Shown here: one piece after another, positions 16,096-50,826 of the stretch
Layout of the letters: every line of letters begins with the position of its first letter
How positions within the stretch are numbered: the first letter of the stretch is position 1
Assembly: GCA_008632985.1 (NCBI GenBank)
Contig: QPGO01000052.1
Span: 248,001-312,000, forward strand
Direction: 5' to 3'
Source: Psammoneis japonica
Lineage: Eukaryota
DNA: 64,000 nucleotides
Notes under the pieces: model-generated
Told to the model about the DNA's origin: nothing
Seen by the model: the letters and a program-made list of their open reading frames with translations, nothing else
Databases searched by the model: none
Position numbers and translations under genes: made by a program

Positions 16096-17097
16096 CCTCT
16101 TACAGTCTCGCAGAGAGAAAATGATAGTGTTAAAACGGTAGTGCAAGCGTGTTTGCAAACGTTGCTGGGATTCCGCTTCTTCCTTTCGTGACGGAAATGT
16201 GAGATGCTGAGGTGCACTTGCACTTGCAATGAGAATCCCGCGCGTTTCTGCATGCAGGCAAAGCTTTCTTGGAGCGCTGTTTTCTTTCTCTGAGGGCAAA
16301 CCATGAAGAAAAGGAAGGGGGGAAGACAGGGAGAAAAGAAAGGAGAGGCAGGTCTCCCTTGGTGTGGCAGCATGTGCCATCCTCACACCTGCCAGCTTTC
16401 AGCAGCACACAAGCAGCAGCGTGAAATTTTCGAGCTCTGCTTTCTACTCAGCTCAATCTCACAAATTGCGCTGCTCTTTCTGGCAGCTGCCTGCGGGCAA
16501 GCTCAGTCACACCTGAGTGTCCTTTTAATCCACAGCCATGAAAGGGTTTGGAGCATCATTTGTGTGGAGATGAGCAGCCAGCTGCTGCAGGAGGGAGAGT
16601 GGCAAGAAGCACAAAAACAGCTTTGCTCCCGAGCCCCCCCCCCCAAATCACAAGAACCCTGGTGGTGTTGAACCCATGCCTTTTGGCTGAGAGATCACAA
16701 TGGGGAAAAGGAGCTCTCTTCTTTGCAGGCACTGACACAAAGCTGAGGCCCCATGCACAGTGTGGCCATGGCACCTCAAGGAAAGCACCTGCTTGCATTG
16801 TTGTGGATTTTCTTTTTGGGCTGCAGCAAGCTTTTGCCTGGCACACATGCTTCTCTCCTCTGGAAAGGCTTGCTGCAGCACTTCTTTTTGTCTTTTGGTT
16901 TTCTGTTTTCTCTCTTGAGCTTTCTCTCATGGATCTTGAGGCAAAAGCTTGTGGGGCAACATGCACAAGAGAACACCTGTCCCCACGCGCTGCTCTGTGA
17001 TTGTGGCACTCTTTCTTGCATGCAGCTGGCTGGGGAAAACAGAAGGAAGGGTGCAAACATCTTCTTTTGCAGTGAAGCACACAGCCACTTGCCAGCT

Positions 17098-17570
17098 CTT
17101 GGACTCTGGCCATTGTGGTGTCACAGAAGAAAGGCAAGATCTTCTCAGCTGTTGCCACACAAACATCAACAAATTGTGAGACAAACTGGTGACAAACTGA
17201 AACTTTGCAGAGCTTGGTTGAAGATTGGGCCAGTTTTGGATGACACAGCTGCACTCAACTAAGAAAAAAGCTTTCTTGGTGTGCTGCTTTGGTTCCACAT
17301 GATGTGAGCATGTGAAGCTTCTGGTTTTCCTTTGAACAATCAGTGTGTCCCCCTTTTCTTGCTTGAGACACTTGCCAGTGCTTGGACTCTGGTTGTGGCG
17401 GTTTGCAGAAAGGCAAAATCTTCTCAGCTGCTGCACAGCTAAAACTCAGAAATTGTTCAAAAAAATGGCAACAAACTGTGGCAACTGAAAGTTTGCACAG
17501 CTTGGAGAGAGGGCCAGTTTTGACCAACAAAGCCATGCTCAACTGAACAAAAAAAAGCTTTTTCTTGGCA
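17098..17570. repeat. Degenerate direct duplication of about 190 bp (17098-17282 and 17381-17570)
   Basis: Shared cttggactctgg..gaaaggcaa.atcttctcagctg..gggccagtttt..ctcaact..aaaaaagcttt..cttgg. Confidence 0.75.
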
Positions 17571-18449
17571 CTGTTGCAGAGTGTGGCTGTCACATGTGAG
17601 CATGTGTTGCTGGCCTTTTCCCACAAACAATCTTCCCCATGCACCCCCTTCCTTGCCATTGTTGACAAAAGACAGGCGGGTGAGACACAAGTTGGAGACC
17701 ACTGGGGCCATGGAGCAACAATGTTTTGTGCACAAGGAAATGGCAGCATGTGGAGTGTCCTGCCACCATGGTCATTTTGGGCTAGAAAGTGACTTGCTCC
17801 TGGCCAGCCACTTGCTCCTGGTTCCTCTGTTGCATGAGCTGACCATTTTTCATTTTGAGTCATTGGCGCCTTTTGAGTGCAAACACTTTGTTTTGGTTTT
17901 TTTGTGATCTGTGGTGCCATCAAAAGTGCCTGTGGTTGGAAGCACTGCTTGTGTGCATGGGATGGGATGGGCTCAAACTCTGCATGGCACACCAGCAAAA
18001 TGGTGCATTTTTAGAGTTTTTCATCCCCCACAAGCCAGACCAAGCAGCCATCTCTGTGGTCAAAGTTCTTGACAACAAGAAGATTCTCAATCCTCCTCTC
18101 CTTCTCTGTTCTTTCCTTTTGTGCATGCACAGTTGGCCACACTGCCCTGCACAGACAAGCACCAGCTCCAAGTGAAGCAAGACAAGTGGACAAAGATGGC
18201 TTCCATGCATCAGCAGGAGCTCCCATGAGTTCAACCCAATGTGGTGCACAAAATCTTTGCAAAGTGTGGCTGCAACCACAACATGAAACAAGACACATCT
18301 TGTGTGCCCAATCTCCCCCCCCCCCCCTCTTTGGGAAGTGGAGTTTTTGGGTTGCTTGATGCTGAGCAAGGGGTTTGGCCTAGAGACTTTCCTTTAATTT
18401 TGGATGCTTGGGCTCAGAAGCAGCTGCATTTTGGTGCCAGCATCAGTTT

Positions 18450-19820
18450 TTTGAAGGAAGTTGACACCCCATCATTGCCCTGTGCCAAATGGATGCCTCT
18501 CTCTCTCTGGACATTGATTGCCCTGCTGGCATCCCCCTTCTGCAAAGAAACAATGACCTGCACCATGCCAAGGACATTGTTGCACTGGAATTTTGCAGCT
18601 TGTCAGCTGAGCCACACCAGTCTTGCTGACCCCCAAACTTGCTGCATGGATTGCAAACACACTGCTCTGTGCCAGTTGCCATGTTGTCCTGGTGCAAAAG
18701 CTGAAAAGTGACCACAGCAAGTCCCACCTTCATGGTGAGTTGCAAACATGATTTTGACATGTCACCAACAGTTGTCAGTGTCACTTTCACTTCAACATTG
18801 TCTGTCTGTGCTCCAAAAACTGCATCACACCTGGGTGCTCCAACACAATCACTCCAAACACATGAGCTCTCAATTGGTTGGCCTTGTGTGAACAAACCAA
18901 AGGAGGAGGATGACAGTTGGAAACCATGTCACCTTGCACCATGTCAACTGCTTCATCAACATCCATGGCTCACTTCATCTGACTCCACCTGCAAATGATC
19001 ATTGTCATCATTGAGCAAAGGACAGTCCTTTTTTGCATGCCCAACCTTGTTGCATTTCCAGCACTTGATCTGCTTTTTCTCATTTTGCACAAAGCTTGTG
19101 CCCTCAGGTTTCTTGTTGGCCCCACATGTGTCCAACACCTGCAGCACCTCCTCTTCTTGGCCAAATTGGGACAATTGTCAATCTCCAGTGCAAAAACTGC
19201 TGGTGCAAGTCCTTCAAGATGTGCTGACATTCCTTTTGCACCTTCCATCCATGAGCAGCACTGCTGACAACTTGTTCCTTTCTTTCTTCCAGGTGGCATC
19301 AGCATCCTTGCTGAACCCATCTTTTTTCTTGGCAATTCTTTCAGGACAACCCTTCTGCAGCACCACCCTTCTGCTGTCTCAACAATCCTCATCTGCTGAT
19401 TGCAGCAATTTTGAAGCACCTCTCCTTTGTTCCAAGGAACAAGTGCCAGCTGCTTCCAAGCTTCAACAGCCTGAACATGCAAGCACACTCTTTTGTTTGC
19501 ACTGAACAAGATCAACTTGAGAATTTCCAAACTGGTGCCATCACGCCCAACTCATTTGTGACACTTGCAAACTCCGTCACTCCTTCAACCTTGTGATTGA
19601 TGGCCTTCATGCACTGTCCCACAACACAATCAGTGAGCACCCACATGGAAATGCGCACAGAAATCTGTGATGCTCCTGAAGCATTTGTTGAGGGACATCC
19701 ACAATCCAATCGGCATTTTTGCCTCAAATTTTGCAGCATCACTTGCTGCCAGCACCATCTGACATTCATTGACATGATTGTGACACCCACATGTGCAGCA
19801 CCCAACCTCCTCTTGTTCCA
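18450..19820 (-). mobile_element. Copia-like retrotransposon remnant (gag zinc knuckle plus RT-like fragment)
   Basis: IKCWKCNKVGHAKKDCP CCHC knuckle near 19020-19070; segment 18610-18830 is homologous to 29890-30080. Confidence 0.6.
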
Positions 19821-21369
19821 CAAGGAGAAAGAGCAATGTGTTTGCAGCAGTTGGGGTCTAAAGTGCTGTGAGATCCAAGAGAGCTTTCGTGCTCAAGCCA
19901 AAGCAGGCAAAAATGAACCTTGTGCTGGTTGATGCATGCATCTGCAACTTGGAGGCAATTTGGAAGAAAGCAGAGCAATGGAGAGATGTGGCACTGGCGA
20001 ACCTGGGAATGTCTTGATGATGCAATTGTCAAATTTGGGTCAGGCTCCTGTTGCCAAACATCATTGGACCATCAAGCAACTGTGGTCTTTTGATGGTGGC
20101 AAGAAACCCTCTGCACCACTGCCCTTGGCAAAAATGACAGCTCTGATGAAGGCAGTTGACCTTCAACTCTTTATGAAGAAGGGACTCTTCATGAAAGAGA
20201 GTTCCAACAAGCAACACTTTCACTGTCTCAGTGTCCCAATGAAATCATTGTTGACAGGAAAGACAAGGATGTCACCATGCAGTGAGCGCAAAGATGCACT
20301 TGACATGCACAGGACATTTGCAAAGCTCCAAAAAGGAGAAGCATTGCACAACAAAGAGCGTGAGCCTCCTGAATCAATGGAGTCAGATGTGATTGAAGAG
20401 AGAGAGCTCAGGATGCACAGCAGAAGCTGTCACTCCTCAAACAAAGCAACAGGATGAGTGTGCACGGGAAGTGCAAAGCTGAAGCATCTGATGCTGGCAT
20501 GGCTGAGCCTTTGTGTGATGACCATGATGTTGAAGACTTTGCTGCAGATTTTCTTGACTCAAACTCTGCTTCTCATTGTCAAGAACTTGCATCACCCAAA
20601 TGGCACACTGACAATCCAACAGCATGCAAAGATGTGTTTGGCTTTCACACTTTGGAGGAGATGAAACACAGCATCTTCTGTTTCTTTGTGATGCACCAAT
20701 TCTTGTGTTTCTGACATCCTTTTTGATGGAGATGACAGAAAACTAAAGTGCAATCCAACCAATCTGACACAACTCAAACAGCGGCTGATTGCAAAGCACT
20801 TCATGCAGCGTTGCCCAGTGCACAAGATTGCTGGGTTTGCTTTTGGCATGTCATGACATTCGTCAAAGAGATGCATTGAAAAATTGGTGGGCCAAGCATG
20901 GAGAATTTCTTTTGATTCTCTCCTTGAGCCACATGATTGCTTTGACAAGGAAGTGCCAGACAAGTTCACCAAAGTGCTGCTTGACTTGGTGGTTTTTCTT
21001 TTTGATGGAAAAAACACTCCCACAGAAACAAAACACAAAGATGATGCTGCATGTTGCACACAAGCCAGCTCCAAAATGCACTGTTTGGCACTGCAGTTTA
21101 TGAACTTTGTCACAGCATGTGCACTCTCAAATGAGCACACTTGGGTGTGCAGGGCTGGAGCAGATGAGAACAAATTTGTGTTGTTGAGTGGTGGGTGCAG
21201 AGAAGAGAAAGCACCAACAGAACAGTGGAAAGACTGTGTCGCGCATCATGCATTTCCGGCACCGCAGTGTGCTGAAACATTGGACAGCACTCAATGATTT
21301 GGAAGCAGTCAGAGATTTGCTTGATGCTTTGGTTGAATCAATTGACAGAATGGAGTCAGATGGCAAAAC

Positions 21370-21736
21370 TGCACTGTGCTCGAAGAACGAGTGTAAACGA
21401 AAGTAGAATAGTGTACGAAAAGTGGAAATTATGAGATTGGATTTTACTCTGTGATTTTTGGTTTCTCCGAATGAGTTCTCAATGGCCTAAAGCTTCTGTG
21501 CTGCTTCTACAGACAAAAGGCCTTTCGGAGAATATAATCGTGACAACAGATAGTCCGAATACGATTGCTTTTGACACATAAGATGTCAGCATCGTCTATC
21601 GATCGCATTTGCGATTTTCGACTTCCGATCAACTCTGTGTGATCGTTCTGTCCTTCGCACGCATCCACGACTGTGGCACGATTGACATGTAAATAACACA
21701 TAATCACACATATGCACACAACAGTCGCATGCTGCA
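21370..21736 (-). repeat. 3' LTR of the gypsy element (TA-converted copy)
   Basis: Ungapped alignment to 25637-26003 with 14 substitutions. Confidence 0.95.
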
Positions 21737-24700
21737 TTCGCCTCCCTAATTGCACATTAGAGTCATTTGTTAAGTGGATTATTCGACGGATGTTGACAGT
21801 GTCAACAATGTCTCCACGTTCACTGCATTGTGCCATCAGTGATGACTGTTGTCGTTTTGTGTGGGCCATGTGGGGCCGTTCCAATTTCTGAATGTCTCAT
21901 GAGAGTGACATCGTTTGTTTCTCACTTTGTGTGTGTGCATGTGTGGTGTTACGTCGAGTGTTCTCGTTGACGTTCTTTGTTGACATGAACACAAGGACCA
22001 ATTGTCCTGCAGTGTTTTTCATGATGTCGATTGTACCTGGCATTGTGCCCAGTGCTTGATGTGCGCTCTTTTAATTGTTGTGGCGTTCACTTTGCTTGTG
22101 GAGTTCATGCAGTTCTGGCTGGCTAACTTCACATGTGCCACATTGCTCTGCTGCACTTCCACGTGTCGTAAGCAATTGACGATGGTCAAGGACATTTTCT
22201 AACCATTTCGTCTTGACAATCCTGGGATGGTCATGGACTCCTTTGTGGATTTCTTCATTGCTTCAACCATCTTTCCTTTGGATTTTGATCGTCATTTGGA
22301 CGTTTCTTTTTTGACATGCCGGTGACATTTCGTCATTCCGAAGGCACTGCTTTTGTGCACTGTTCGGATGAATGTCCATTTTTGTGTTTTGTTTCTGAAT
22401 CTTTGGCACATCTCGTGTGACGTCATTTGTGTCTTGCCTTGCACATCGTACATTGCAATCGTGCGGGTGCTGTGAGATTGTCTTTTGCCAATGTGAAGCA
22501 GGCACGTGTGATGTGCACCAATCTGTCACTGATTTTTTCTTTAACCGTCCCCAAACAAGGCGATTTTTTCCTTATGACATGAGCATTTTTGATCTCGCTC
22601 GCCTCCACGAAAAGTGTTCGTATGACATGTCGCGCCCGACAATTTGGAGGAAATGTCTTTGTCCCGTTTTGTTCAGTGTCGAGAACTTTGCAATTTAACG
22701 GAAAGACATTGTCGCAGGATTTTGGTGGGACCTTTTCAGCCAACTCTTCTGTGCTGAGGTTTTCCACAGGTTCTATTTTTTTTATGGCAAGTCGGCTGAT
22801 CGCTCTTGCGACGACGTTCGCCTTGCCCTCGATGCATTTTATTTCGGGACTGGAATTCTGCATTCTAAGTCGTCAACGCATGACTCTGTCCGTTGTGTGT
22901 TGTGAACCGTGTGTGTGACAATCTGTTGGCCAAACAGTGTGTTCCGGGAATTGTTGAGTGTTTCCACTGTGGACAGAAGTTCTTTTTCCGTTGTGACTTG
23001 AACATTGCAATGCCATGTTTGACAATGACATGGTTTTTGATGTGATGCGCTCCACATTTTCGGAGACTTTTCGTTCTGTACTTGTCCTTTTGCCGTTTGA
23101 CCTTTGTTGAGGTGGATTTGGCTAGAAATGTACAGGAGATCATTGAGACTGCATGTCTTTGTGGCAGCAACATGTGTGGACAAGCTGTCGCAATTTTCTT
23201 TGCGTTTTGCTCAATGTTGCGATTGCCAGAATCGCCTCCATTTTCTTTGTAATTGGATGCACACCGTTACGTGTGGAAGTCTTGATAATTTTTTTCAAGT
23301 TAAGCAGTGAAGGACTTTTGTTTGTCAACCTTCAAAGCGACTGTTCTGGTCGTGTGAACGCCGTTTCAAGTTTTTCTTGTGCAGGTGACATTTTGAAGTT
23401 ATTTTCTGTCAGGTGTAAATGTTCATTCTTAGTCGTTCTGACAACTCCAAACCTGCCATGAGTTCACTCATGCGTTGTATGAAAATACATGGGGCTCCAT
23501 GGATTCTTGTCGGAAGTCTGCAGCACTCATTTTCCCCCACGGCATCATTCTGATGTGAGCACGACGTGTGCTTTTTGATTTTATATCGTGGTGTTCCATG
23601 ATTGAATCGTAATTTCATTTTTAAAACTTCAATCTTTCATAATTGGTTAAATTCCTTTCAAATGAATGCCTCCAAAGACTGTGACAGGAGAAGGTTCTCA
23701 CACGTCGTGGAATCGCGTCAGATTTTTTCACAGCGAGATCCATTGATTCTTTCAATTCATTTGTCCAAGGAACTTTTCAAAAGGATTTCAAACCTCTTAA
23801 GAAGGAGACTGAGTGGTTTATCTTCTTTTGGTTAAGATGTATTGCTGTAGCTGTCACTTGATTAGAATCGACGGCGTGATAATGTGAGTCGAGAACCATC
23901 GGTCTCGTTATTAACTCTATTCACCGCGTAATATTTTTCAATGTGATCGGCATTCAGCTGGAACATTTCTGTATCGAAGAGTGCATCAACATTCTTCATA
24001 GGGTAATTGCTTCATTCCCATTTGATTTCTTCAATTCCGTAGTCTAGTATGATTGCAAAACTGGACATTAAGTCGCGTCCCATGATCATATCATTCGACC
24101 TTGAAGGGTATTTGGTGTTATTGACATATACTGTTTGAATATCAGTAAGTCTTAAATTCGCGTACTGAGAACTGAATTCGGTGTTTACTATCAGTCGTAA
24201 AGAGCTCACCCTTGGTTTCCCAAGTTTTTTGGTGGCGGATATCTTGGTTCTCAACTTTGCACGATTTTGCGTAAAATCATGGGCTGACGATGTTCTTTAT
24301 CGAGAGAACACGTAGAAGCTTATTTTTTGCTTTTCTCAGAGAAGTAGTCATATAGACAGCGAGAATAGGACTCGTATAACATACTGTGATGCTTTTTCTG
24401 GGTTTCCAGACGTCCTGTAACGCGTTATACTCCTTGAGCGGTATAAATTTTTGATCGGACTCGATCGGGTCAATTTTTCTAAATTGATAGTTTTATTCGT
24501 TAAGCGTTTTAGAGTCTTAATTTTCGCTCTTATTTTTACGTTCCTTTATCGAGGAACTCGCTTTAATTGTTTTTGTGAACTGCCTAGTTCATAGTTCAGT
24601 TCAATTCCTCTTTCACAGAGGTATTTCTGCTCTCGTCACGTTCGCGTGCGATTGCCATTTAGAGCGTCGTATTTTTGGGTCTCTTTTAGAGCCACCCTTG

Positions 24701-25636
24701 CACTCTTTCGCTAATTCATTTTCAGAATAGCTTTAATCCGTGATGTAGGTATTCTTTTTTCAAAGATTGGACCTTTTATTCACTTTGGATTGTGGTGGTA
24801 CCATATAGGAGACCATTTTTGGAACCAAAATTGGAACCTTTTTGATTGTGGAATCAACTGCGCTATCAGAGCCCGAATTGATATGTTTTTTTGTCATAGA
24901 CGTCCTTGCCGACCTCTAGACGACTCAAACCTCAATCAGCTCGTAAAGGGTATGATCCAGTAGTTCAATATTTTGGACAGTAGGCTGATGCTGCCATCCT
25001 TGCGGTGCGAGTGATAGCTGATAAATCAGCGCTCGGTTTCCCGCTAGATTCGACTTAGAATCCATCTGAGGGTCGTATAGACTCTCATCGTTGACCTCTT
25101 GGGTCTATCAGAGGCTTTCTTGCTGTTGAGCGGCTCTGGTTTCTTCAGGTCGTCTCGAAAATAATTTCCCTGATTCTGAAGTGCATTTCCTCGGAGGACA
25201 TGAGTTATGAGACGCTTGAGGTACTTTCCAACGATTCCCTCTTGCTCCTTGGACTCGAGGATCATCGATTCGGTCTCAAAAAACTCTCCAATAGTCTCTC
25301 CTTGCATGGTAGACGTATTTCTCGGATCTGATCGACTCGGAACTTGCATTCTCTGCAACCATGACTTGGTGTAGATTTTTTGATAATGCGGTGTACTTGA
25401 GAGCCCTTGATCCTTGGGTGCTTGGAATAGACCGTATTAGAGCGAATCCTCTTGTTTGGTAGACGAAAAACAGCGTTCCATCTTGAGGTACTGCTCGGCT
25501 TGAGCTTCTTCCGCTCGGAAATCGATTCCAGCAGAACTGATGCGATTCGTTCCTGTTTATAGAAGAATTTGCAAAGGCACATTAGTTGAAATTTTCATTT
25601 TCCGTACTTTTTACCTTCTGTGGTGTGTATACACAA

Positions 25637-26003
25637 TGCACTATGCTCGAAGAACGAGTGTAAACGAAAGTAGAATAGTGTACGAAAAGTGGAAATTATG
25701 AGATTAGATTTTACTCTGTGATTTTTGGTTTCTCCGAATGAGTTCTCAATGGCCTAAAGCTTCTGTACTGCTTCTACAGACAAAAGGCCTTTTGGAGAAT
25801 ATAATCGTGACAACAGATAGTCCGAATACGATTGCTTTTGACACATAAGATGTCAGCATCGTCTATCGATCGTATTTGCGATTTTCGACTTCCGATCAAC
25901 TCTGTGTGATCGTTCTGTCCTTCGCACGCATCCACGACTGTGGCACGATTGACATATAAATAATATATAATCATATATATGTATATAACAGTCGCATACT
26001 GCA
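25637..26003 (-). repeat. 5' LTR of the gypsy element (TA-retaining copy)
   Basis: Ungapped alignment to 21370-21736. Confidence 0.95.
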
Positions 26004-26217
26004 AAACAGAAAATGGCACAACCAAACACACTCAAGCTGTTGAACATTCTCAAGAGTCTGGAAATGCCCCTGTCAATCACATGAGTGCAAGCAGCCAAAA
26101 AATTGAATGCTCTGAGAAATCTAAGAACAGCAACAACTCTTTGAGCACTGATTGCGAGTCTGACTGGATGGACATGACCAATGGCTGGAGTGAAAACAGC
26201 ATTGTGACAATGTCCTC

Positions 26218-26790
26218 TGCAGAATCCAGCACCAACAGTGATGGCCAGGAAGTTTCAAAGTGTGACAACATTTTTGTCAAGTGTGATGAATGGCTCATTG
26301 AAAGAGTTGGGACAGTTGTTGAAAAAGGAGAAAGCTCAAAGATGCTGGAGTTGACAAGGTTGCATTGCTTGTCAGTGAAGACCAAGCCTTGTTGAGGTTT
26401 TAAATGAAAAGGCATTGGCTTGCTCACTGCAAAATGATCCAGAGTCATTTCTTCAGCAACTTGAGCCATTTAAGAGACTCTGCAGGCTGTGCAACTCTTG
26501 GCCACTGCAGAATCCACCACCAACAAGGATGGCGTGAAAGTTTCAAAGTGTGATCCTGTTTTTGCCAAGTGCAACAAATGGTGCAATGAAAGAAATGAGG
26601 CTGTTTGAAAAAGGAGAAAAGCTCAAAGATGCCAGAGTTGACAAGGTTGTGTTGCTTGTCCATGAAGACCAAGCCTTGTCTGAGCTTTTAAATGAAAAGG
26701 CATTGGCTTGCTCACTGCAAAATGATCCAGAGTTGTTTCTTCTGCAACTCAAGCCATTTGAGAGACTTCACAGGCTCTGCAACTCAAAGG
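26218..26790. repeat. Tandem duplication of about 288 bp within the DDE pseudogene
   Basis: tgcagaatcca..aagtttcaaagtgtga..gaaaaaggagaaa..ttttaaatgaaaaggcattggcttgctcactgcaaaatgatccagagt occurs twice. Confidence 0.85.
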
Positions 26791-27288
26791 CCATCTCTGG
26801 CAAAACATGGTGAGTGCCCATTTTGAAATGAAAAAGGAGCATTGCTGGGATCTTCTTTGCTGGATGGGAAGCAAACTGACCCCACCAATCTGCAGAATGC
26901 ATGACCCTGAGTTGCCTCCAGAGGTCCACTTGTGCCTGCACAAAATCCTGCCAAACAAAGAAGAGCTCAGCAACAAAGGATCTGAGAAGACAGAGCACTG
27001 TTTTCCACATTTCCATTGAGTGTGCATGCCTCAAGTCTTGCCACCACAAACCATCAAACAACAGCATGACGAGCTTGAACTTGGAGACAAGAAGGATGTT
27101 TGCAGGGCATGGCTTCCAATGATGGTCCCTTTTTCTTGGCTTGTTGCTGTTGATGGTCTCCACAACAATGCCCCACACCATGAAAATCTTTGTGTCATCA
27201 TTCCACACATGTTGAAATGGGGTGCACATGGAAATGAGCCTTGGAGCACCACTCCAATGGCCAGGAGGGGCTGACAGGGGTCTTCCTG

Positions 27289-29196
27289 TCAATTGCTGGG
27301 ATTGAGAATTGTGCTGCGGCTCAAAAAAATTGTCAACATTTGATCTGCAATGGTTGCTTCCCATTTCCTGCTGCTGCACTTTGCCTTCTCTTGCACCATC
27401 ATCAGCTCCATCAAGAGTGGTGCTTTGTTGATTGGAGATGGGGGCATTGTTCTTTCAAAAGCATCTTTGTTGGCACAACACTGCATTTGGTGGAAAATGA
27501 AAAGTGCGCGAGAGTGTGCAAGCACACTTCTCATCTGTTGCAGCATCCACAGCACAAAAAGGGGCATGACAAAAATTGATTTGCATCAGCATCAAAGCCA
27601 ATTGCAGCATGTGGCCTTCTTGTGCCTTCTTTGCTCCCCTGATTGCAGATTTGATGACACTGCTTCTGTCTTCATGGGTGGAATGCAATGAAGTTTGAAC
27701 AGCTGCACAAAATTGCCTTCAACAAACATTTTGCAGATGCAAAGCTCTGTTGCATCAATGAGCAAACCACCACCTTGCAACAGCAGGAAACCTTGTTTGA
27801 GCTCATGTTCATTGCCTTTTTGGTGAAAATTTTCAACCAAGCTTGGCAGCATTGAATCAAGCTCTGACACACAATCACAATGACAACAGCATTTGTTGAT
27901 TGATGTGAAATGTCTCACAGCTGACTCTAATTCTGACTCATCCCCAAAAACAGGGTGTCCAAGTTGAGCAGATGCCCAACACTGCAACACAGTGGTTTGC
28001 ACACACATGGAATGGGAGCCACTTCAAAATTAAGATGTGCGTGCAATGGGAGTTCTTTTTCACAATGACAAAATTGCTCATTCTTTAATGTGTTGTAAAG
28101 AGGAGCCAAAAATTTCTTGCTCAATGGCTCGCCATTCAAAAAGGTGGGCCCTTCAAACTGCTGTGCCAATCAACAGTCTGTGATGGCATCAGGTGGCAAC
28201 TTGAAAGGGTCAAAGCCAACAGCTTTGCCCCACAAAAAAGCAGGAGAATTGCCTGTCTTTTCTTCCAATGGATTCAGTGGAACAAGATTGTGATGTTTGT
28301 CAAGGACCGGGCAGTGCAAAAATGGTGCCGCTGCCTTGTCAAAGTTCTCCACACAGCCTGCTGGGATTGCAGCCTGTCCAAAGGCTTTCTCACCAACTTG
28401 CGCTGCAGTGCCTTCAGACCAATCTGTGCTGGCAAGCCTTGGAAGGATGCTCTTGAAGATTCTTGAAAACCCTTGGTGGCTGCAGTTGTCTGAGCCAAGA
28501 AGATTGGTTGTCGCTGAAAAGCATTTGAAGTCATGCACTGCAATGGGACAATTGGCAGGCAATTGGCCCCTTTTGTGCACTTTCCATGCACCATCAAACC
28601 ACAGATCAACCTTAAAACAAAAACAACCTCAGCCCCCAGAACAACAGTGTCACCATCCTCTCCATCATGACACTGTTGATTCAACCGTCTGCCTCCATTT
28701 TGATGAGTTGTTAGTGCTTGGCCTTGCGTGCAGAGCATTCATGTTGGACTCCATTGCCAATCATCTGTTCTTTGACCAACAATGTTGGGTGAAAGGTCAG
28801 ACCAATCTCTTGCTCTTTGCAGTGATTGGCACTGGTTGACCTCGGCAATCATGTCACCAGCTTTTCTTTTCTTTGTGCAGTCATCCATCCATGCATCTGC
28901 TTTTGCCATCTTGTTGTCCTTGCCACACTCTTCATTGGATGTCTTGCCCCATCAAAAATGTGAAAAAGAGATGCCCCAGCTGAGACAAGCTTGTTGTGCA
29001 TGGATTTGGCTGTTGCCAACAAACTTTTTGGCAGATGCAGTGGCTGTGATGGGAGGCACAATGCACAGTGGCATGTTTTGTGAAGCCTCGCCAATGTGTT
29101 GATCCTGGTTCTTTTTCCACTGGCATCAGCAAATGGTGCAGACTGCAGCTTGTTGACATTGCCAACAGCTTTGACCCATGGGTTGCCAATTCCCAT
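27289..29196 (-). pseudogene. Exo1/XPG (Rad2)-family nuclease pseudogene with C-terminal SWIM-like zinc finger, convergent with the DDE gene
   Basis: MGIGNPW..GKRT.IN...RLHK, HIFDGARHPMK, QLIKMEADG, EDGDTVVLGA and LLGSDN follow the XPG-N, XPG-I and H3TH motif order; a Cys/His cluster near 27510-27570. Confidence 0.78.
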
Positions 29197-29889
29197 TGCC
29201 TGTGCATTGAGGTGTTGTGGAGTGATGTGCAGAAGTGCAGCATCAAGGCATGCAAAAACGAGCTTCAGTTGTGGATGATGTCTCTCAATTTTTTTCATGC
29301 ATCACATCTGCACCCTTGCTGCTGCTCACTGCTTCAAATGCCTTTGCTTTCTGTGTCTTGTGGATTGTGCCCCATTTCATGAGGTGATTGCATTGATTGC
29401 CCAGATTGCCTTGTCTTTCTCCAGTGTGGTTGCACCTGATGGATGTTCCAGCTCCTCTGATTTGCTCTTCTGCCTCACACACCAGTGCCTGCATCTCTGG
29501 CCTGAACACTCGTCCAACATGATGCTCATTTGCTTTCCTCTCATGGCCTCTGTGCATCTGCCATCCTCTGCCCTCTGCCTGTCATCCTGACTTGGCAATG
29601 ATGCCGCACAGTCACTCCTTCAAATCTTTTGTGCTTCCATGCTCATCAGCTGTGTCCTCACCCCGCATCAATGTTTCCCCTGGTCTGACACAACTTTGCC
29701 ACACCTTTTTTCAACAGACCCTTCACAGCTTTGTCACAGCAAGGTCCTCCAGAGACTGTCTGTTCACTTGCTTCATTGAGCCAGTTTGCTTGCCACAATC
29801 TGCTGGCATGAGCTCTGCACCTTTGGATTCTTGATGACTTTCCAGCCAGCCTTTTTAGCTTCAATGTTGATGGAATTTTGTGGCTTGCC

Positions 29890-30080
29890 AACTGATCTGT
29901 GCCAGCCTTGCTGCCCCCCAAACTCACCACCATGGATTGCAAACACTGCTCTGTGCCAATTGCAATGTCATCATGATGGTGAGTTGCAGGTGTGATTCCA
30001 CCACATGTTGCTGACAGCCACTGGCATTGCTTTCACCACTTCAATGTTGTCTGTCTGTGCTCTGAATTGCGTGTCACACC
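29890..30080 (-). repeat. Dispersed repeat homologous to 18610-18830 (probable copia RT fragment)
   Basis: Shared catggattgcaaaca..ctgctctgtgcca..atggtgagttgca..ttgtctgtctgtgctc. Confidence 0.65.
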
Positions 30081-30679
30081 CAGATTTTTCAACACTTCAT
30101 AAAAGTTGCGAATCTTCTTGTGTGCCACCAATGTGGACAACTCAGTTGGAGCTGGGCCTTTTGAAAGAGGCCATTGGCACAACCCCTCCACTGGCCAGCA
30201 GCGCATGACCTGCCTCTGTGCATGCTCCCTTTTGACCTTCCTCTCTTGGAGCAAGAGTGACGGGAGCCCTCTCTGGCCAGACTGCTGGGAAGCAACAGAG
30301 ACAGGCATGCAAAGTGTTTTGCTGTCTGAGTGCATTGAAGCCAGCATGAGAGCCTCTGGGGGATTGGTGGCTGGCTCCTCCTTCCAAAATGATGCGAGGA
30401 GCACAATCCTCTGTGTGTGCTGCTCACTCCAAGAGAGCAACGACACCAGCACTTGTTCCCCAAGCTGAGTGGCTTCGAGCTTCACCCTGTGTGCTTGGCA
30501 ACACTTTGAATCCACTCAGGAAAGTGAGCACGTGTCTTTTCCTTTGGGCTGTTCAATCCCAACTCCCAACTGCTTCAACAAGCAAACTTTATCAGCTTCT
30601 ACATGACTGAAGACAATTTTAACCTCCTCGCATTTTGTGCTTCAGCCACTTTGCGGAACGAATGCGGCACCCATAGCAC

Positions 30680-35472: not shown

Positions 35473-38400
35473 AGCGAAGTCGCAGGATAGAGACAAGAGC
35501 GAACTAATTCTAAGGAGGTCGCTCAATGCATGCAAAGTGTCATGTTGTGCTCTGTACTCTAATGTAGTCCACTTACTCATAGCCTCTCCTCCAGGCGGCA
35601 GCGTGTGAAAAATAAGAACACCAAGCACTCCTGGCCGGGGAACTCTCACTGACAGAAGATGCAAAGCCGTAAAGTAGCTAGATGTCCCTCTCAAGATACA
35701 AGTGTGCTTAGCAGTCTCTCTCTACTAGAAGTAGTACGCTCTACAAGAGTAGAGGCCTGCTGTTGATCAGCTCGAGTATGTCCACCTTCGGACAGATGCC
35801 AAACGCTTGTGCCTCTTTACTTCACCGTCTCAACCCTCGAAACCCGCCTTTTCTTTTGTGACCGACAAGTCATTCTTTGTTGTTGCAACAATGACAGCAA
35901 CAACAAGCTGTGATGGAAGAAGACAGGCATGCCCCTCTCCACTCTTCTCACACACAGCTCTGCATCCATCATGGTGGACCATGCATCTCCCTTCTTGGGG
36001 CAGCATGTGTGGTGTGGCAGTGTTGTGTGTTGCCTGGCAGCATCTTGGCATGAGTTTGGTTTCTGCAAACTTGTGCTGCAATTAAGCCACTGTTGCTCTT
36101 TGTCTCAGGAGCTGTGCTGGCATCTGTGATGAAGAGCATGGTGACAACAAGGTCGCAGCATGGTCCGGCAAGTTGTGCAGCCCGCTGGGTGGGCACAACA
36201 GCCAGCTTAAAATGACCCACACATCCTGGTGGGGTGCAGCAATTGGCAGGTGGCAAAAGGCTGCACAGTGCTGATTTGGGAGAGAAGCCAAGTTTGGGCT
36301 CCTGTTTGGCCAAATCAAAGTGCAGTCAGTCAAACCTTGTTCGCCACAGCTCCACCATGCACTCACTTTCAGGTGTCCCTCCTGAGGGCGGTCCACCTGA
36401 GCGAAACAGCACAGCATCAAGCAGTGCTTGTTGGGCAGGTTGTGTGCTCCTTTCTTTCCTTGTTTGCATGACCTTGACATGTTTTGGCATGATTGGGGGG
36501 TTGAAGAACCCCGCCCTCTGCCATGGCAGCAGGTTGTCAATTTTGAGCAGCTGATGGTCTGCCAGTTGTGGAGAAGGGACTCACATGGCATTGGCAATGT
36601 GGCGGGCATTGTCTGGTCATGTTCCTGGCTGCCATGCTCAGGCACCATGCATGGTTCCCATGATGCACATGTGCTGCACTTGAGCAGTGACTCGCACTTG
36701 ATTTTCAGCTCATGCTGTCTGCTCTTTCCTTTTTTTTGGCCCACTCAATGTCCTGACAAACAAGAATTTTTCAATCCACAGTCTGCGCAGTGCAGGGCTC
36801 ATTTTTTTGTGACATCTCAGCAGCTCAAGGGTGACTGTGCTTGATGGCTCATGGTGGTGACAAAGCCTCTCCTCATCAACCATGGATTGGATGATGCTGA
36901 TCCCACCAAAGACATCTCACAAAAATGTTCTGCTTTCTGGCAGCACAGAAATTTCTGTTGCCACAGAAAAGCACTCCTCAAACCACTGCTGCAGTTGCAG
37001 GGTTGTTTTCAGCTGAACAAACAATGGACAAAGACAAGCATCTCTTCCACCTTCAAGAAATGTTCAAAAGAGTGTCAAGATTGTCAAGCAACATTTTGTG
37101 ACAAATGTGTGGAGAAAACATCTTCAACTTTGCTCTTTCCACTTTTCACAAGCACATGCCCCGCAAACCACTGTGGATGAATGTCCCAGCTCCACAGTGC
37201 TCTCATGCAAGAAACACATGAACAACCCCCACCCACTCTGGGTGTGTGCAACAAAGCAAAGGCCACTGCACTTGCAAAGAAAAAAGATGCACAAATCAAG
37301 TTCTTGTCACCATGTTTTGAGCCAAGAGGAACAGATGTGCAGTTGTGGTGCCTGCCAAGAATGGATGCCAGGCAGATGGAGCTTTAGATTGTTGCTTTTG
37401 TGATCATGTGTCAGTTCATTGTCTTCTGATGCAGATGTGACAAAGCTTCAAGAGATTGAACAGATGTGTGCATGTGAAGCACAGTTGGCACAGCTTCACA
37501 GAGACACAGATGCTGGGTGGAACAACATTGTGTTGAAACTGACCAAACCTGAGTGCTGCCTGTTGCATGATCAACGCTGCTCCTGTCAAAAACAGTGCAC
37601 CACAGTTTTTGACAGAGCACATGCAAAGCCTGCAACTGGGGTCCACCTGTTTTCAGTGGCAGCAGCTCTTGTTTTTCTGAGAAATTTGCAGCCAGCATGA
37701 CTGCCGCGCCATTGAAAGGGTGCCTTTTGTTGTTTGTCAGCTGCCCACCGGTGTTCATTCTGTGCACAGCTTGTCAATGATCATTTTCAATTTTTCTTCA
37801 AAAGCCACCAATTCAAGACACTGCTGTTGCTTGTGTGATGACACATCATGTGCAGCACATTTGTGTGGCACACAGATGGCAGTGTGGCAGTGGCACAAGT
37901 GTTTCTGTGCAATGCAGGTCAAGAACAAGAGAGCAAAGCTGCCTCGCAACAGAGAACCTTCTCTTGAGACACATGTCATGTTTTGTCATCTTGCACTTCA
38001 AATGTGGTTCAAATGGCAAATGCTGTGTTTGTTGCATGTGAGCTGGCAGCACTTTTTGTTGTGCATCTTGCACACAACAATGACAAATGAGGGTGCTGAT
38101 GAGCCAAGATCAGGAAGAAAGAACTGCCCCTTTAAGACAGAGCATGCTTTGTTCATCCTGCAGAACAGCAACTTAAAACTTGACCACATTGCTCTGAAAA
38201 GGGTGCAAACACACATTTTGTGAGGGTGCATCATCTCTCCAGGCATTTCTTGATGCTGTCAAGCAAGAGGAGGACATTGAGGCTGGCACTCCCAGGTGGG
38301 TCTGCTTGTCAAGTGTTGCACTGCTGGCAGCAACCAGTGGAAAATGTTCTGGGCAGGAGTTGAGAGATCTTTTTTTCCAACCAACCCACTGGCTTTGGAG

Positions 38401-38790
38401 CCATTTTAAGATGTGCTCCAGCTCTGGGTGAGACCCTGCGCTGCTGGACTTTGATGAACATTTTTTGATCATGCACTGCACACACATTTCTGTGCACATG
38501 CTTTTTCACATGCCGGGCAAATGGTGCCAACTTGAGCATTCATCGAGTTGTCTGATTGCAGATTGCATTCCATGCACTCTCTGGAGTGTTGGCATCATGC
38601 AATGTGTGCTGGTGCAATGCTGTGTCCATGGTGATGCAATGACAGGAAGACAGATGTTCACGCAAGTGCTTGCAGATTGTTGCCCCTGGCAGTCAGCAGG
38701 TCATCAGTTGTGCATTGCATCACAGTTTTAGACAACAAGCCCATTCAAGAGCTCTGTCAGAATGCCTGACTGCACACTGCAAGAACAAAC

Positions 38791-44700: not shown

Positions 44701-44978
44701 GACAATGTCAGCCAGTGTGTTTCAACTGATGGAGAGTTCAGCTGCCACAGGAAGAAAAATCACAAATTGTGAGCACAGAGCAGAGCAATTTTCCACTCAC
44801 TTTGAGGAGCATTGAACGGATCACTTTCAATGCTCAATGGAGGAATTTGGAACATTTTGCAGTCCCTTCAAATTGCAGTCAATCAATTCACAGGGGCCAT
44901 TGGTCAAATGTCCACAATGTCCTCATGACCAAACATCTGCCAATGTTGCAACTTGAGCATGATGTCATTCATTTGACA
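38791..44978 (-). mobile_element. Ty1/copia (CoDi-like) LTR retrotransposon, near full length, heavily mutated; LTRs approx 38791-39054 and 44700-44978
   Basis: Diverged TG..CA LTRs, PPT (ctccctc on + at 39055), TGG-starting PBS next to the 5' LTR, integrase VSMDQ..ACHADDG..TFAGINTHHMNAVAE, RNaseH FEDNSSALEIAK..PRTKHL. No intact TSD found. Confidence 0.88.
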
Positions 44979-45049
44979 GAGAGCACAATGTTTTCAGTGT
45001 TGTCTGTTGCCACACATGGCAGCAGCTTCAAAGCTGTGTTGTTTGTGCT

Positions 45050-46990
45050 GGTTGTGCATCATTGTTGCAGCTCATTTCCACCTCACTCAGCTCTCAGCAT
45101 GGCAAATGGTGGCCCTCTTCCTCTTGAGTTGACCAACAAAGCTGTCAGATCACAGCTGTGGATGTTGATGTGAAAAAAAAGACATTGTTGGCTCACTTCA
45201 CCTCCAGGTTTTGGCAATTGTGCAAGTTGCAGCACATGCTTGTTGCCAAACCTTTCTTTTCAACAGATGAGTTGTTCCTTTTTGCTTTGCTTCATTGCTT
45301 TGTGGCCATGAAAGTGAATCTTTTCTTGGATGATGCAGTCAATTGTGCACCCAAGGCAAGAAACAAAGGACGAGTCACTGTGAGATGGAGCTGGCAAGCA
45401 AATTTTGCTCAACAGGAATCAGACAAAAATGGTGCTCTGGGGGGGGGGTTCATGACCATTGACTGTGACAGAATCCTCACACAACCATGTTTCACAAATT
45501 GCCAGTGGCCACATCAATGACAGTGTGTGGGAAACCACAGCAGCGTCACAAACAAGCATGTTGATTTGGACATGCTTGTGAAATTTCAATGTTGTGACAG
45601 CTCTTGCACATCTCCAACCATGCTCAAAATGCAACTCACTCTTGGCTTGGTGCAGTCCTGTCTTGGCACCAGCAACAAACTCTGACATGTTTGCCTTTGC
45701 CATGCATTCTGCATGCTTCAAATTTCATGTTTGCCATTGCAGCCAAGTCACAAGACAATTCTGCCATGTGACAGACAATGCAGAGTGGTTGGTGTGCATT
45801 CATCATGGCCAACAAATGCTTCAGCATGTTTCTCAAACAGCTGGCCTGCCAAAGTCTTGGTGATCAAATGATGTGGACCACCCACCCACACTCCTCCCAC
45901 AGTCTTTGGATCTTTGGCATGCTCAGTCACTCTTGTTGTGAGCAATCTCAAATGAATGATTCTTGCTGTCACCCCATGCTTTGCCCTCAGCTTCAAACAC
46001 AATCCTTGATTTGGAGTCACCAGCATCATGGTGCACTGAACAGATTCCATGTTTTGCCACTCATGAACACAGATCCTCCTGCAGCAAGATGCAATTGGTG
46101 CCGTTCCTTCCAGCAACTCAAAGTCATCTTCAAAACTCCAGCTGACAGCTGGCAGAATCAATTTTTGCCCTTTTGTTCTCTTGGTCAATGTCAATTTTGC
46201 ATCCCAAATTTATTTGAGTTCTTCTGTGTTGTCACAATCAAACAAATTCTTCATCTGCTTCATTGTTTGCTTCTTGAACACAGTGCTTTGGTCCACAAAT
46301 GAAGCAGTCATCAACCCATGTTGTTAACTGTGTGGCTGACCCATCAAAAACCACTTGAATTGCAAACAGGGACTGGCGTTGCTCTTTTTATCTTTCGCTT
46401 TTATGGAAGCTTTGTTGATTTCCCACTGGAGTGCAATGGCAGCTTGCTTCAGCCCATGTGTTGTTTGCAATGAAGATGGCACAACATCTCCTGAACGGAG
46501 TCTTTCAAATCCTTGTGACACTTCCATGTGTGCAGTTGTTGTTCATTCTCTAAAATTGGGCCATTGAAAATGCTCCACATGCATCCAACAACTGGGCCCA
46601 GTGCACATCAGTGCCAACAATGCTGCCCATGCAGTGACGTCATTTGCAGCTGGCACAATTTGTTGAGCTCCTTGCAGTGCTCTCCCTCCACTTGTGTTTT
46701 TGAACAATCTCCACAAGCATTTGTGTGAGCCCAAAATTCTCAATTTGCCTTCCATTTTATCACCCAAGTTGAGCTTGGAATTCTTGCATCCTCCGGAATG
46801 TCCTTGTGATTGCTTGGCTCCCAGATGCTGTGTGCGCTGCTGCAAACTTGTGACGCACCCTCTTCTCCAGCTGGTGCTTCACAGCACTCCCAGGCAGCGT
46901 GGAACGTTGGCTGTCTTCACAGCTTCAACATCATGTTTCATGACTTTTAATTCTGAAGTGTTCTTGAATCCACCGCCCAGTCCAGCTGCA
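45050..46990 (-). mobile_element. Second copia remnant (RT/RNaseH)
   Basis: MEVSQGFE..DVV..LQTTHGLKQAA, ASPCLQFKW and WVDDCF (about 46301-46318). Confidence 0.8.
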
Positions 46991-50785: not shown

Positions 50786-50826
50786 TGTGCGCATTTTGTG
50801 CGCATTCTGTGCGCATTTTGTGCGCA
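50786..50826. repeat. 11-bp tandem repeat (tgtgcgcattt) about x3.5
   Basis: Read directly from sequence. Confidence 0.85.

Follow-up and report, generated by a model that had tools for sequence, protein, structure and literature searches.

The window, by which we mean the whole 64-kb stretch of Psammoneis japonica DNA analysed here, contains large blocks in which nearly all TA steps are gone and are replaced by TG or CA. This raises the question of what kind of process removes TA steps from chromosomal DNA, and by which rule a few of them are spared. The block borders were sharp, with TA-normal genes adjoining, and the block contents included an LTR-like element, short repeats and a gene paralogue (Table 1). 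At the left edge of the block at 16145-21369, the last TA before the TA-free zone was a GTAG at 16139, with CGs continuing to ~16500, and within this block the 500-nt bins held 0-3 TA and 0-6 CG each. No Pfam match above the cut-off was obtained for 118 open frames of the blocks, and none above the curated cut-off for 51 frames of the element (≥45 aa, within 21600-25800). A 416-aa frame had no homologue at E≤0.001, and none of the window's 13 long gene frames contained a deaminase domain. These searches of the frames gave no homology support for the blocks as mobile-element DNA.

Table 1. Features of the 64-kb window that enter the analysis.
Feature	Position	Strand	Remarks
Saturated block with the starting finding	16145..21369	.	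TA and CG almost absent, TG/CA about doubled
LTR-like direct repeat, partly converted copy	21370..21736	.	367 nt, TG...CA ends
Converted tract within the LTR-flanked element	21688..23600	.	TA lost, CG untouched
Unconverted part of the same LTR-flanked element	23700..25636	.	gene-like TA/AT and (CA+TG)/(AC+GT)
LTR-like direct repeat, unconverted copy, TA kept	25637..26003	.	367 nt
Saturated block, continuing 16145-21369 past the inserted element	26004..30520	.	12 TA left
Saturated block	35900..46900	.	37 TA left
TA-erased, CG-retaining stretch; contains the paralogue of 63440-64000	46900..48500	.	11 TA left
TA-erased stretch, CG partly retained	50500..62900	.	46 TA left
TA-normal paralogue, the reference for 47480-48250	63440..64000	.	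alignment

The dinucleotide composition of the blocks was examined to see which steps had been lost and which gained. In the saturated blocks, 20.7 kb in total, depletion was restricted to TA (observed/expected, o/e, 0.04) and CG (0.10), and a clear rise to TG (1.83) and CA (1.88); GC was slightly up (1.34 in the saturated blocks vs 1.08). Losses of the AA, GA or CA type were not seen in the blocks. The two strands were affected about equally (TG 2453, CA 2262), with no local excess of either product. The CpG decay to TG/CA in the same blocks is a slower, separable process, and is probably the ordinary loss of methylated C. In the stretch at 46900-48500, TA o/e was 0.05-0.18 and CG o/e 0.9-1.16, and CG o/e was 0.59 when the two TA-only stretches (46900-48500 and 50500-62900) were pooled.

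The direction and timing of the changes could be read from the pair of LTR-like repeats. The copies at 21370-21736 and 25637-26003 both had TG...CA ends, aligned without gaps and, as a pair, were flanked by AAAC, a possible 4-nt target duplication. They differed at 14 positions, all of them transitions. At 13 of these the 25637 copy carried TA and the 21370 copy TG (5 sites) or CA (8 sites), and this direction was uniform; the fourteenth, CG in the 21370 copy and TG in the other, was a CpG transition. A T preceded the mutated A in all 13 of the A/G or T/C differences, each of which fell in a TA. Given that LTR copies are identical at integration, the 13 TA-type differences post-date the insertion. 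Our recount also agreed with the original prediction that TAY, or RTA on the complementary strand, accounts for 12 of the 13; the remaining one was a TTAG>TTGG change at 21439. Expressed per opportunity over the 31 inferred ancestral TA sites, 12/43 TAY and 1/19 TAR adenines had changed (Fisher p=0.05), which makes the TAY bias marginal when the LTR count is taken alone.

The LTR changes were clustered, with 9/13 within 21688-21736, and the conversions in the element formed a tract of ~1.9 kb with one edge inside the LTR. In 250-nt bins, the converted tract had TA counts of 1-8 and most bins past 23870 had 13-20, and CG stayed at ~10 per bin throughout the element. The TA/AT index was 0.27 in the converted tract, 0.71 in the other element half and 0.69 in gene DNA, and the corresponding values of (CA+TG)/(AC+GT) were 1.37, 1.13 and 1.22. 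With its gene-like indices, the unconverted half is therefore neither RIP-like nor TA-erased.

These observations bear on two explanations other than an enzyme acting on adenine in DNA. RNA-level A-to-I editing of element transcripts by an ADAR- or ADAT-type enzyme, fixed via reverse transcription, would suit a retroelement-like repeat pair among the targets, but is very improbable: the 13 LTR changes arose after integration, the strands are almost equally affected, and the targets extend to a gene paralogue and to long stretches without retroelement features. The reported +1 preference of ADAR, with G or A enriched (PMC10027721), is also opposite to that of the blocks, as described below. The second explanation concerns error-prone patch synthesis at WA by a polymerase-eta-like enzyme that is recruited to heterochromatin and places G opposite T. 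The somatic-hypermutation literature describes polymerase eta as a source of A>G changes at WA, and a conversion tract of this length with an edge inside the LTR would be in keeping with patch synthesis. WA also covers AA, yet AA was not lowered in the saturated blocks (o/e 1.25 vs 1.14 in gene DNA), 0/14 LTR differences lay at ApA, 14/14 were transitions and the restriction to TA was near absolute. The comparison with polymerase eta that had been suggested thus led to a signature that does not fit, and we consider this explanation improbable.

Surviving TA steps are the sites that an otherwise thorough process has left behind, and their contexts can provide insight into its preferences. The block at 16145-21369 retained exactly 12 TAs (CTAC, TTAA, CTAA, CTAA, CTAG, TTAG, CTAG, TTAA, CTAA, TTAT, CTAA and TTAT), of which 9 were YTAR, 3 YTAY and none RTAN, as against 181 YTAR among the 1006 TAs in gene DNA (Fisher p=3e-5, binomial p=2.6e-5). 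The gene DNA, 24 kb of the same window, held in addition 271 YTAY, 258 RTAR and 296 RTAY; the survivor and product tests took this DNA or the one unconverted element half as baseline, and neither represents the true ancestors of the blocks. The 61 TAs of the saturated blocks comprised 44 YTAR, 12 YTAY, 5 RTAR and no RTAY, a distribution different from that of gene DNA at p=1e-18. The YTAR excess was present in all three saturated blocks separately, with 10/12 in 26004-30520 and 25 YTAR, 9 YTAY, 3 RTAR and 0 RTAY among the 37 TAs of 35900-46900. The claim that the survivors are mostly YTAR was therefore borne out, and survival within the window was far from uniform across tetramer contexts.

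In the TA-only blocks, 57 TAs were distributed as 25 YTAR, 20 YTAY, 10 RTAR and 2 RTAY (p=1.5e-5). The stretch at 50500-62900 contributed 23, 14, 7 and 2 of these, respectively, and 46900-48500, with YTAR at 2/11, presented no excess. TCTAC recurred among the survivors here, making up 9/17 YTAC, and TACG accounted for 9/29 surviving TACN against 127/601 in gene DNA, which indicates no preferential loss of TACG. Over the saturated and TA-only blocks together, survivors of the YTAY and RTAR classes numbered 32 and 15 (p=0.03), a strand asymmetry that we cannot account for.

The survivors might be thought to say nothing about the mutator, if they were TAs that arose later or were brought in as target-site duplications (TTAA, TA). 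TTAA is the target duplication of some DNA transposons, and was the commonest survivor in the saturated blocks (19/61). Transitions from the TG and CA of the blocks would be predicted to yield 24% YTAR, but 44/61 (72%) was observed (p=1.7e-15), and an identical rule emerges from the products and from the polarised events, neither of which involves survivors. We therefore regard a later origin of the surviving TAs as hardly credible.

The rates of loss were modelled on the assumption that each strand contributes independently. An additive per-strand Poisson model fitted better than one rate for all contexts (likelihood-ratio p from 2e-11 down to 1.5e-26), and the fitted k by 3' base in the saturated blocks, in ranges that cover both baselines (gene DNA or unconverted element half), was 0.24-0.69 for A, 1.1-1.2 for G, 2.5-2.9 for T and 2.9-3.2 for C. 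The order of rates by +1 base is thus C, T > G > A. An A at +2 was enriched among survivors, at 0.52-0.54 against a baseline of 0.27 (p=8e-5 and 8e-4), and is therefore protective. In the TA-only blocks TAC was slower than TAT (k 1.2-1.35 vs 3.0-3.5); this slowness, together with the recurrent survival of TCTAC, is unexplained by a pure 3'-base rule.

The products of the process pointed in the same direction. After subtraction of half of the lost CG, the saturated blocks had gained 16.5 products per kb through the TAY adenine (YTGY+RCAR; 95% bootstrap interval 12.4-20.5) and -1.6 per kb through the TAR adenine (YCAY+RTGR; -6.0 to 2.6). The TA-only blocks gave 16.5 per kb (11.1-21.8) and 1.1 per kb (-2.8 to 5.2) for the two routes. 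Tetramers with one TAY and one TAR adenine were accordingly resolved almost solely via the TAY adenine, YTAY and RTAR sites becoming YTGY and RCAR rather than YCAY and RTGR.

Events whose direction is fixed by alignment were obtained from the LTR pair and the paralogue pair. Together they comprised 20/64 changed TAY adenines against 1/30 changed TAR adenines (p=0.003), or 21/64 against 3/30 when ambiguous events were added (p=0.02). Sites in the repeat pairs with a single TAY adenine were changed at that adenine in 4/4 cases. Between the paralogue at 47480-48250 and its TA-normal counterpart, 8/8 clean TA transitions were at TAY adenines, and conversion was found in one copy only. The comparison of the converted and unconverted element halves displayed a trend (0.27 < 0.40 < 0.59) that was not significant (p=0.26), and RTAY survival in the element, at 0.28, was above the prediction from the saturated-block rates.

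Survivors, products and polarised events are three separate lines, and they agree on the 3'-pyrimidine preference that had been proposed. The preference for Y over R stands, and the rule is finer than that wording, with the graded order at +1 and the protective A at +2. An earlier hit on TAY is what the difference in rates implies, but the early-stage data that would display it directly, namely the LTR count and the element trend, are weak.

We are highly confident that a context-biased mutational process converting TA to TG or CA has acted on these blocks. In the proposed mechanism, it acts on chromosomal DNA after insertion and is limited to multi-kilobase blocks, changing A to G at 5'-TA-3' on each strand independently, such that a TA ends as TG or CA. 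The bases 3' of the adenine set the rate, which is fast before C or T, ~2-3 times lower before G and ~4-10 times lower before A, with an A at +2 causing further slowing. Because the per-adenine rate depends on the following bases, RTAY is lost earliest, YTAY and RTAR are lost via their single TAY adenine, and YTAR persists in saturated DNA, chiefly as TTAA, CTAA/TTAG and TAAA/TAGA-type sites. Beyond the signature, polarity, post-insertion action and context rule demonstrated above, we infer a deaminase that turns A into hypoxanthine, read as G, is aimed at silenced repeat DNA, and has a pocket that recognises a T at -1 and favours C or T at +1. Our best guess for the agent, at about even odds, is a DNA adenine deaminase, and we give the explanation as a whole, process and deaminase together, a probability of roughly 0.6.

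Two further explanations share much of this evidence. A lesion-maker might strike all TpA alike, with hypoxanthine:T or the derived mismatch being repaired better before purines, so that only TAY is fixed. Base-excision enzymes are dependent on sequence context, and all of the context results are compatible with such repair, as the data record fixed mutations and not lesions. An approximately tenfold effect that adds up strand by strand and extends to +2 is more typical of substrate recognition, and we consider selective repair unlikely. Slightly less likely still is that the modified base is the T of 5'-RTA-3', for example by an oxidation that makes it mispair with G, giving T>C and, on the opposite strand, A>G in TAY. 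RTA and TAY are one site on two strands, which double-stranded outcomes cannot separate. No system that modifies thymine to this effect is known to us, and adenine deamination yields the observed transition directly; it is also what the authors of a study on Bigelowiella natans propose (Mettrop et al., bioRxiv 10.64898/2026.01.13.699255). It is reasonable to read the context bias as an enzyme fingerprint, and this reading stays an inference because a T-directed enzyme reading RTA, or context-dependent repair, would give the same pattern.

Returning to the deaminase, a bolder and tentative reading is that of a dedicated, chromatin-directed natural 'adenine base editor', which would recognise 5'-T-A-Y-(not A) where silenced DNA exposes single strands, and clear mobile and duplicated DNA of its TpA. 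This enzyme family would then be shared by two or more distant lineages of algae, stramenopile and rhizarian, and the +1/+2 rule would be the fingerprint of its substrate pocket. If a dedicated deaminase is indeed at work, this rule could pick the enzyme among candidate deaminases.

So far, a single preprint, from 2026, has described motif-specific A>G writing into chromosomal DNA by a natural process. The quantitative rule described here (a preceding T, a +1 order of C, T > G > A, protection by A at +2, and independent strands) is a testable fingerprint, which can be held against the 231 mutations that arose de novo in Bigelowiella (bioRxiv 10.64898/2026.01.13.699255) and against the in vitro preferences of candidate deaminases, and could aid the search for a natural A-to-G DNA editor. 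The process also has consequences for dating and annotation. LTR-divergence dating is invalid in such genomes; 13/14 differences between the LTR-like repeats are hypermutation. In the blocks TGA/TCA made up 0.9 of the stop trinucleotides, TAA and TAG having been erased, and this leaves long frames open in all six frames and will mislead gene callers.

The context rule speaks against the signatures of RIP, ADAR, fungal ADAT2/3 and polymerase eta. RIP changes C to T mostly at CpA, creates TpA, thereby raising TpA/ApT and lowering (CpA+TpG)/(ApC+GpT), and hits both copies of a duplication. The present process resembles it in that transitions accumulate densely and destroy repeated or mobile DNA in blocks adjoining intact genes, but it runs in the opposite direction: TpA is destroyed, one of two paralogous copies is affected, and both indices of the converted tract depart from the RIP pattern. 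For the RIP of ascomycete fungi, PMC7296669 also gives C>T.

ADAR hyper-editing resembles the blocks in its clustered A>G changes. ADAR acts on dsRNA and its reported preference is a depletion of G at -1 with G or A enriched at +1 (PMC10027721), whereas here T is required at -1, a purine at +1 is unfavourable and the changes post-date integration; an ADAR-type signature was thus not found. ADAT2/ADAT3 strongly favour U at -1 (PMC10027721), which agrees with the T at -1 in the blocks, but fungal mRNA editing is reported to have A and G enriched at +1 (PMC10027721), and these are the slow contexts here.

The resemblance to TadA that was originally suggested is partial. As with TadA and adenine base editors, A is turned into a base read as G, and natural TadA sites have U before and C after the A, with UACG at 15/15 E. 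coli mRNA sites (PMC10027721). The obligatory T at -1 and C among the fastest +1 contexts uphold this part of the likeness. Unlike with bacterial TadA, TAT is as fast as TAC and TACG is not preferentially lost, so the UACG motif is not reproduced; the natural substrate of TadA is moreover an RNA hairpin loop, and here DNA is changed. The evolved TadA7.10/8e enzymes are reported to act on dA whatever its context, with G at -1 slightly disfavoured (PMC10085711).

The closest known system is that of Bigelowiella natans, in whose mutation-accumulation lines the integrated DNA of giant viruses and virophages was hypermutated de novo from TpA to TpG/CpA at a rate ~1000 times background, for which an ADAT2 homologue is proposed as the agent (bioRxiv 10.64898/2026.01.13.699255). 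The same preprint cites amphioxus and Trypanosoma ADAT2 homologues as reported to be active on DNA and connects reverse-transcriptase and DDE domains with coding sequences low in TpA, and its main text describes no +1/+2 context rule. The two lineages differ, erasure is near complete here (TA o/e 0.04 vs a Rho of 0.45 there), and TA loss is here accompanied by CpG loss. In both systems the changes are almost only A>G/T>C at TpA, giving TpG or CpA. The changes in Bigelowiella are confined to particular foreign or silent regions, to which the blocks here may correspond, and the long-term trace there is likewise TpA depletion with CpA+TpG enrichment (bioRxiv 10.64898/2026.01.13.699255). The core signature of the Psammoneis blocks is therefore a match to that of the Bigelowiella preprint.

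A TpA-specific process changing A:T to G:C has rewritten the blocks of this window; it acted after insertion, was limited to the blocks, operated on both strands and followed, on each strand, a rule set by the base 3' of the adenine. The gene frames were long, nearly intron-free and eukaryotic (SNF2 helicase, TMEM151-like, PAP2, amino-acid kinase and protein kinase), and the multi-kilobase blocks of extreme dinucleotide make-up were intergenic. In a protein-atlas comparison, the second-ranked cluster was mostly Bacillariophyta and the first- and third-ranked were Streptophyta, which agrees only weakly with a diatom. All counts were derived from this one 64-kb window. Each 500-nt bin over 16.5-21, 26-30.5 and 36-46.5 kb held 0-5 TA and 0-7 CG, with TG and CA approximately doubled, compared to 8-43 TA and 13-39 CG in the bins covering genes. 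When all 16 dinucleotides were checked in the saturated blocks, in which TA and CG are nearly gone, only TA (o/e 0.04) and CG (0.10) had decreased, and only TG (1.83) and CA (1.88) had clearly increased. No depletion of AA was seen in this count, and GC was slightly raised (1.34 vs 1.08), as is expected with the conversion of GTA and TAC. In the TA-only stretches, the TA o/e was 0.07 while CG was largely kept (o/e 0.59), demonstrating that the loss of TA and the loss of CG are separable and that TA loss is the faster of the two. At the left block edge, the sequence was TA-free from ~16140 and 17 CGs remained up to ~16494; TA erasure therefore extends ~350 nt beyond CG erasure. The erasure at this edge also enters the 5' end of the amino-acid kinase domain frame. 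Tandem duplications were observed within the saturated blocks, and weak similarities between blocks point to repeat families that the blocks have in common.

Features discussed in the text, with positions numbered along the window
Feature	Position	Strand	Description
Saturated blocks	16145-21369, 26004-30520, 35900-46900		20.7 kb in all
TA-only stretches	46900-48500, 50500-62900		
LTR-like direct repeats	21370-21736 and 25637-26003		367 nt each, TG...CA ends
Conversion tract	21688-23600		~1.9 kb; left edge inside repeat, right edge mid-element; CG untouched
Tandem duplication	17083-17568		Period ~280 nt, 71% identity
Tandem duplication	26211-26785		Period 288 nt, 84% identity
Inter-block similarities	21004-21234/56654-56884; 18586-18684/29871-29968; 38789-39054/44698-44978		67-80% identity
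Paralogous gene pair	47480-48250 and 63440-64000		TA-erased and TA-normal, respectively; ~84% identity
Amino-acid kinase domain frame	14719-16386	minus	
416-aa frame	55559-56806		
416-aa and 282-aa frames	55559-57655		

The erasure of TAA and TAG left TGA/TCA as the dominant stop trinucleotides (~0.9 in the three saturated blocks and the 50500-62900 stretch; 0.5 in gene DNA, the 24.0-kb TA-normal baseline of the window). Frames of 100-400 aa were open in all six frames of the blocks. When the 118 block frames with a length of 110 aa or more were compared with Pfam, nothing exceeded a curated cut-off; the sub-threshold matches to CxC1 (E=8.7e-4), DUF2477 and DUF6830 were all weak and were discounted, as the change of TAY to TGY renders the frames cysteine-rich. 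The 416-aa and 282-aa frames were without a Pfam match and may not be genes. The former, the one of the two used as a query, had no homologue at E<=0.001 in a search covering proteins of 228-728 aa. From the repeats and the inserted element, rather than from protein homology, we infer that the blocks consist of mobile-element DNA.

The direction of the change was read from the LTR pair, whose flanking AAAC (4 nt) is a possible target duplication. The two copies differed at 14 positions, by transitions only. At 13 of these, the right copy had TA where the left one had TG (five times) or CA (eight times); the 14th presented CG (21526) in the TA-converted copy and TG (25793) in the unconverted copy, and this CpG change therefore occurred in the copy spared by the TA process. 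The element interior adjoining the TA-poor copy (~21690-23600) had a TA/AT ratio of 0.27, and the rest of the element gave 0.71, with a (CA+TG)/(AC+GT) ratio of 1.13 (0.69 and 1.22, respectively, in gene DNA). As all 13 differences run in one direction and the unconverted half is gene-like, TA is the normal state and the change is from TA to TG or CA, a direction opposite to that of fungal RIP. Both repeat copies of an LTR element are identical at insertion, and the TA changes were therefore made later, in the chromosome. The element also sits within a saturated block and is itself only partly converted, with CG untouched, which illustrates that the process continued after insertion. Within the left copy, 9/13 TA sites were converted in 21688-21736 and 4/18 in 21370-21687. 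The last 49 nt of this copy showed seven consecutive T>C changes, with A>G changes on either side. No long one-strand tracts were seen when TG and CA were counted per 250 nt, and their counts were not overdispersed (chi2/df 1.09 in the blocks, 1.46 in gene DNA). Judged from its ends, the element is a putative LTR retrotransposon; the 51 frames examined in it, each 45 aa or longer and located within 21600-25800, had no Pfam match above the cut-off, with only DUF1823 below it, and a metagenome scan with a 21-nt LTR word returned 0 matches.

The TAs that survived revealed the context rule. The block at 16145-21369 retained 12 TAs, of which nine were TTAA, CTAA, CTAG or TTAG, as originally counted; the other three were one CTAC and two TTAT, and a purine preceded the T in 0/12. 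Across the saturated blocks, the 61 survivors comprised 44 YTAR, 12 YTAY, 5 RTAR and 0 RTAY, compared to 181, 271, 258 and 296 among the 1006 TAs of gene DNA (Fisher p=1e-18), and the YTAR excess was present in each block (9/12, 10/12 and 25/37). A skew was also observed in the 57 TAs of the TA-only stretches (25 YTAR, 20 YTAY, 10 RTAR and 2 RTAY; p=1.5e-5), where the YTAR excess was due wholly to 50500-62900 (23/46), with 2/11 in 46900-48500. Survival relative to gene DNA was 0.51 for TTAA, 0.35 for CTAA, 0.23 for TTAG, 0.16 for TTAT, 0.10 for CTAG and 0 for the four RTAY tetramers. The possibility that survivors are new TAs, formed by transitions of block TG and CA, was rejected, as this predicts 24% YTAR (p=1.7e-15). 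CG survivors showed only a weak spread by flank (0.8-1.9 per kb, against baselines of 13-15), and the context rule is therefore specific to TA.

The rates were then described by a model in which the 3' base of each strand's adenine fixes the decay rate k of that adenine, and the rates of both strands are summed. A uniform rate fitted far worse than this model (likelihood-ratio p from 2e-11 to 1.5e-26). The values of k in the saturated blocks were 0.24-0.69 for A, 1.1-1.2 for G, 2.5-2.9 for T and 2.9-3.2 for C, and those in the TA-only stretches were 0.5-0.9 for A, 0.8-0.9 for G, 1.2-1.35 for C and 3.0-3.5 for T; the baselines, gene DNA or the unconverted element half, are stand-ins rather than the true ancestors of the blocks. 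An A at +2 was found in 0.52-0.54 of survivor contexts vs 0.27 in the baseline (p=8e-5, 8e-4), with TAAA and TAGA the most over-represented, and the rule therefore extends one base further. Context-dependent repair of a context-blind lesion is a serious alternative, for which an identical footprint is expected.

Survival alone does not distinguish an effect of the base after the A from one of the base preceding the T on that strand; the two were separated by a product test that is independent of survivors. YTAY and RTAR each carry one TAY adenine, followed by a pyrimidine on its own strand, and one TAR adenine, followed by a purine; a rule set by the 3' base yields YTGY and RCAR, and its rival yields YCAY and RTGR. 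The saturated blocks gained 29.3 per kb of YTGY+RCAR over gene DNA and 11.2 of YCAY+RTGR. After subtraction of half of the CG lost in the same flanks, the TA-derived gain (95% bootstrap intervals) was 16.5 per kb (12.4-20.5) at the TAY adenine and -1.6 (-6.0 to 2.6) at the TAR adenine; the TA-only stretches gave 16.5 (11.1-21.8) and 1.1 (-2.8 to 5.2). The unconverted element half was without product bias (26.4 vs 30.4 per kb). An enzyme directed at T and reading RTA is another serious alternative, since it would be expected to leave an identical footprint.

Polarised events pointed to the same 3'-base rule. In the LTR pair, the TAY context was seen for 12/13 changes, as originally counted, the exception being TTAG at 21439, which corresponds to 12/43 TAY and 1/19 TAR adenines changed (p=0.05). 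The paralogous gene pair, with the TA-normal copy as reference, provided 16 further TA sites: three were kept, eight had one clean transition, three involved transversions, one combined a T>C with an altered flank and one was a double change. All of the clean transitions (8/8) were at TAY adenines. When both pairs were pooled, 20/64 TAY vs 1/30 TAR adenines were changed (p=0.003), or 21/64 vs 3/30 with ambiguous events included (p=0.02), and sites with a single TAY adenine were changed through that adenine in 4/4 cases (one-sided p=0.06). A rate set by the base before the T (-2, same strand), which predicts YTAY>YCAY, was contradicted by the product test and by the 4/4 informative direct events. 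As only one paralogue copy was TA-erased, being duplicated is apparently not sufficient to trigger the process, in contrast to RIP.

The survivors, the 3'-base rates, the +2 effect, the products and the polarised events together support and refine the 3'-pyrimidine preference of the original prediction. Its further claim that TAY is changed first gained weak support: the LTR test was marginal and its events clustered, and the ratio of converted to unconverted element-half TA density followed the expected order (RTAY 0.27, mixed classes 0.40, YTAR 0.59) without significance (p=0.26). RTAY survival in the converted half exceeded the prediction from saturated-block rates, and TAC was apparently slower than TAT in the TA-only stretches. 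TCTAC was a recurrent survivor there (9/17 YTAC vs 21/135 in gene DNA), two of the nine lying in copies of one repeat, and over all blocks YTAY survivors outnumbered RTAR (32 vs 15; p=0.03); the 3'-base rule explains neither.

The candidate mechanism is deamination of adenine in DNA, giving hypoxanthine that would then be read as G. The signature of polymerase eta is a WA motif, and this alternative is disfavoured, as AA was untouched. In accumulation lines of Bigelowiella natans, 230/231 mutations in two integrated viral regions were A>G or T>C, all at TpA, and DNA adenine deamination was proposed, with an ADAT2 homologue as candidate; as described in the preprint, the core signature is the same as in this window (bioRxiv 10.64898/2026.01.13.699255). 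The words 'context', 'trinucleotide' and 'flanking' are absent from the main text of that preprint (bioRxiv 10.64898/2026.01.13.699255), which was the only report of a TpA-erasing process, in diatoms or elsewhere, found in a literature search lying mostly outside subscription journals. This window adds a polarised repeat pair, a product test that attributes the rule to the base following the A, rates for each 3' base, the +2 effect, and explicit tests in which the rule is set against the signatures of TadA, ADAR, polymerase eta and RIP.

The proposed likeness to TadA-type deaminases held in part. Bacterial TadA and fungal ADAT2/3 editing are described as having T (U) at -1, and the bacterial TadA motif UACG has C at +1, both as observed here, while fungal editing and ADAR are enriched for A/G at +1, the opposite of the present rule (PMC10027721). 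Evolved TadA editors are described as almost context-free (PMC10085711). The T at -1 and the C at +1 therefore argue for the likeness; against it, TAT was lost as fast as TAC and TACG was not preferentially lost, accounting for 9/29 of the surviving TACN vs 127/601 in gene DNA.
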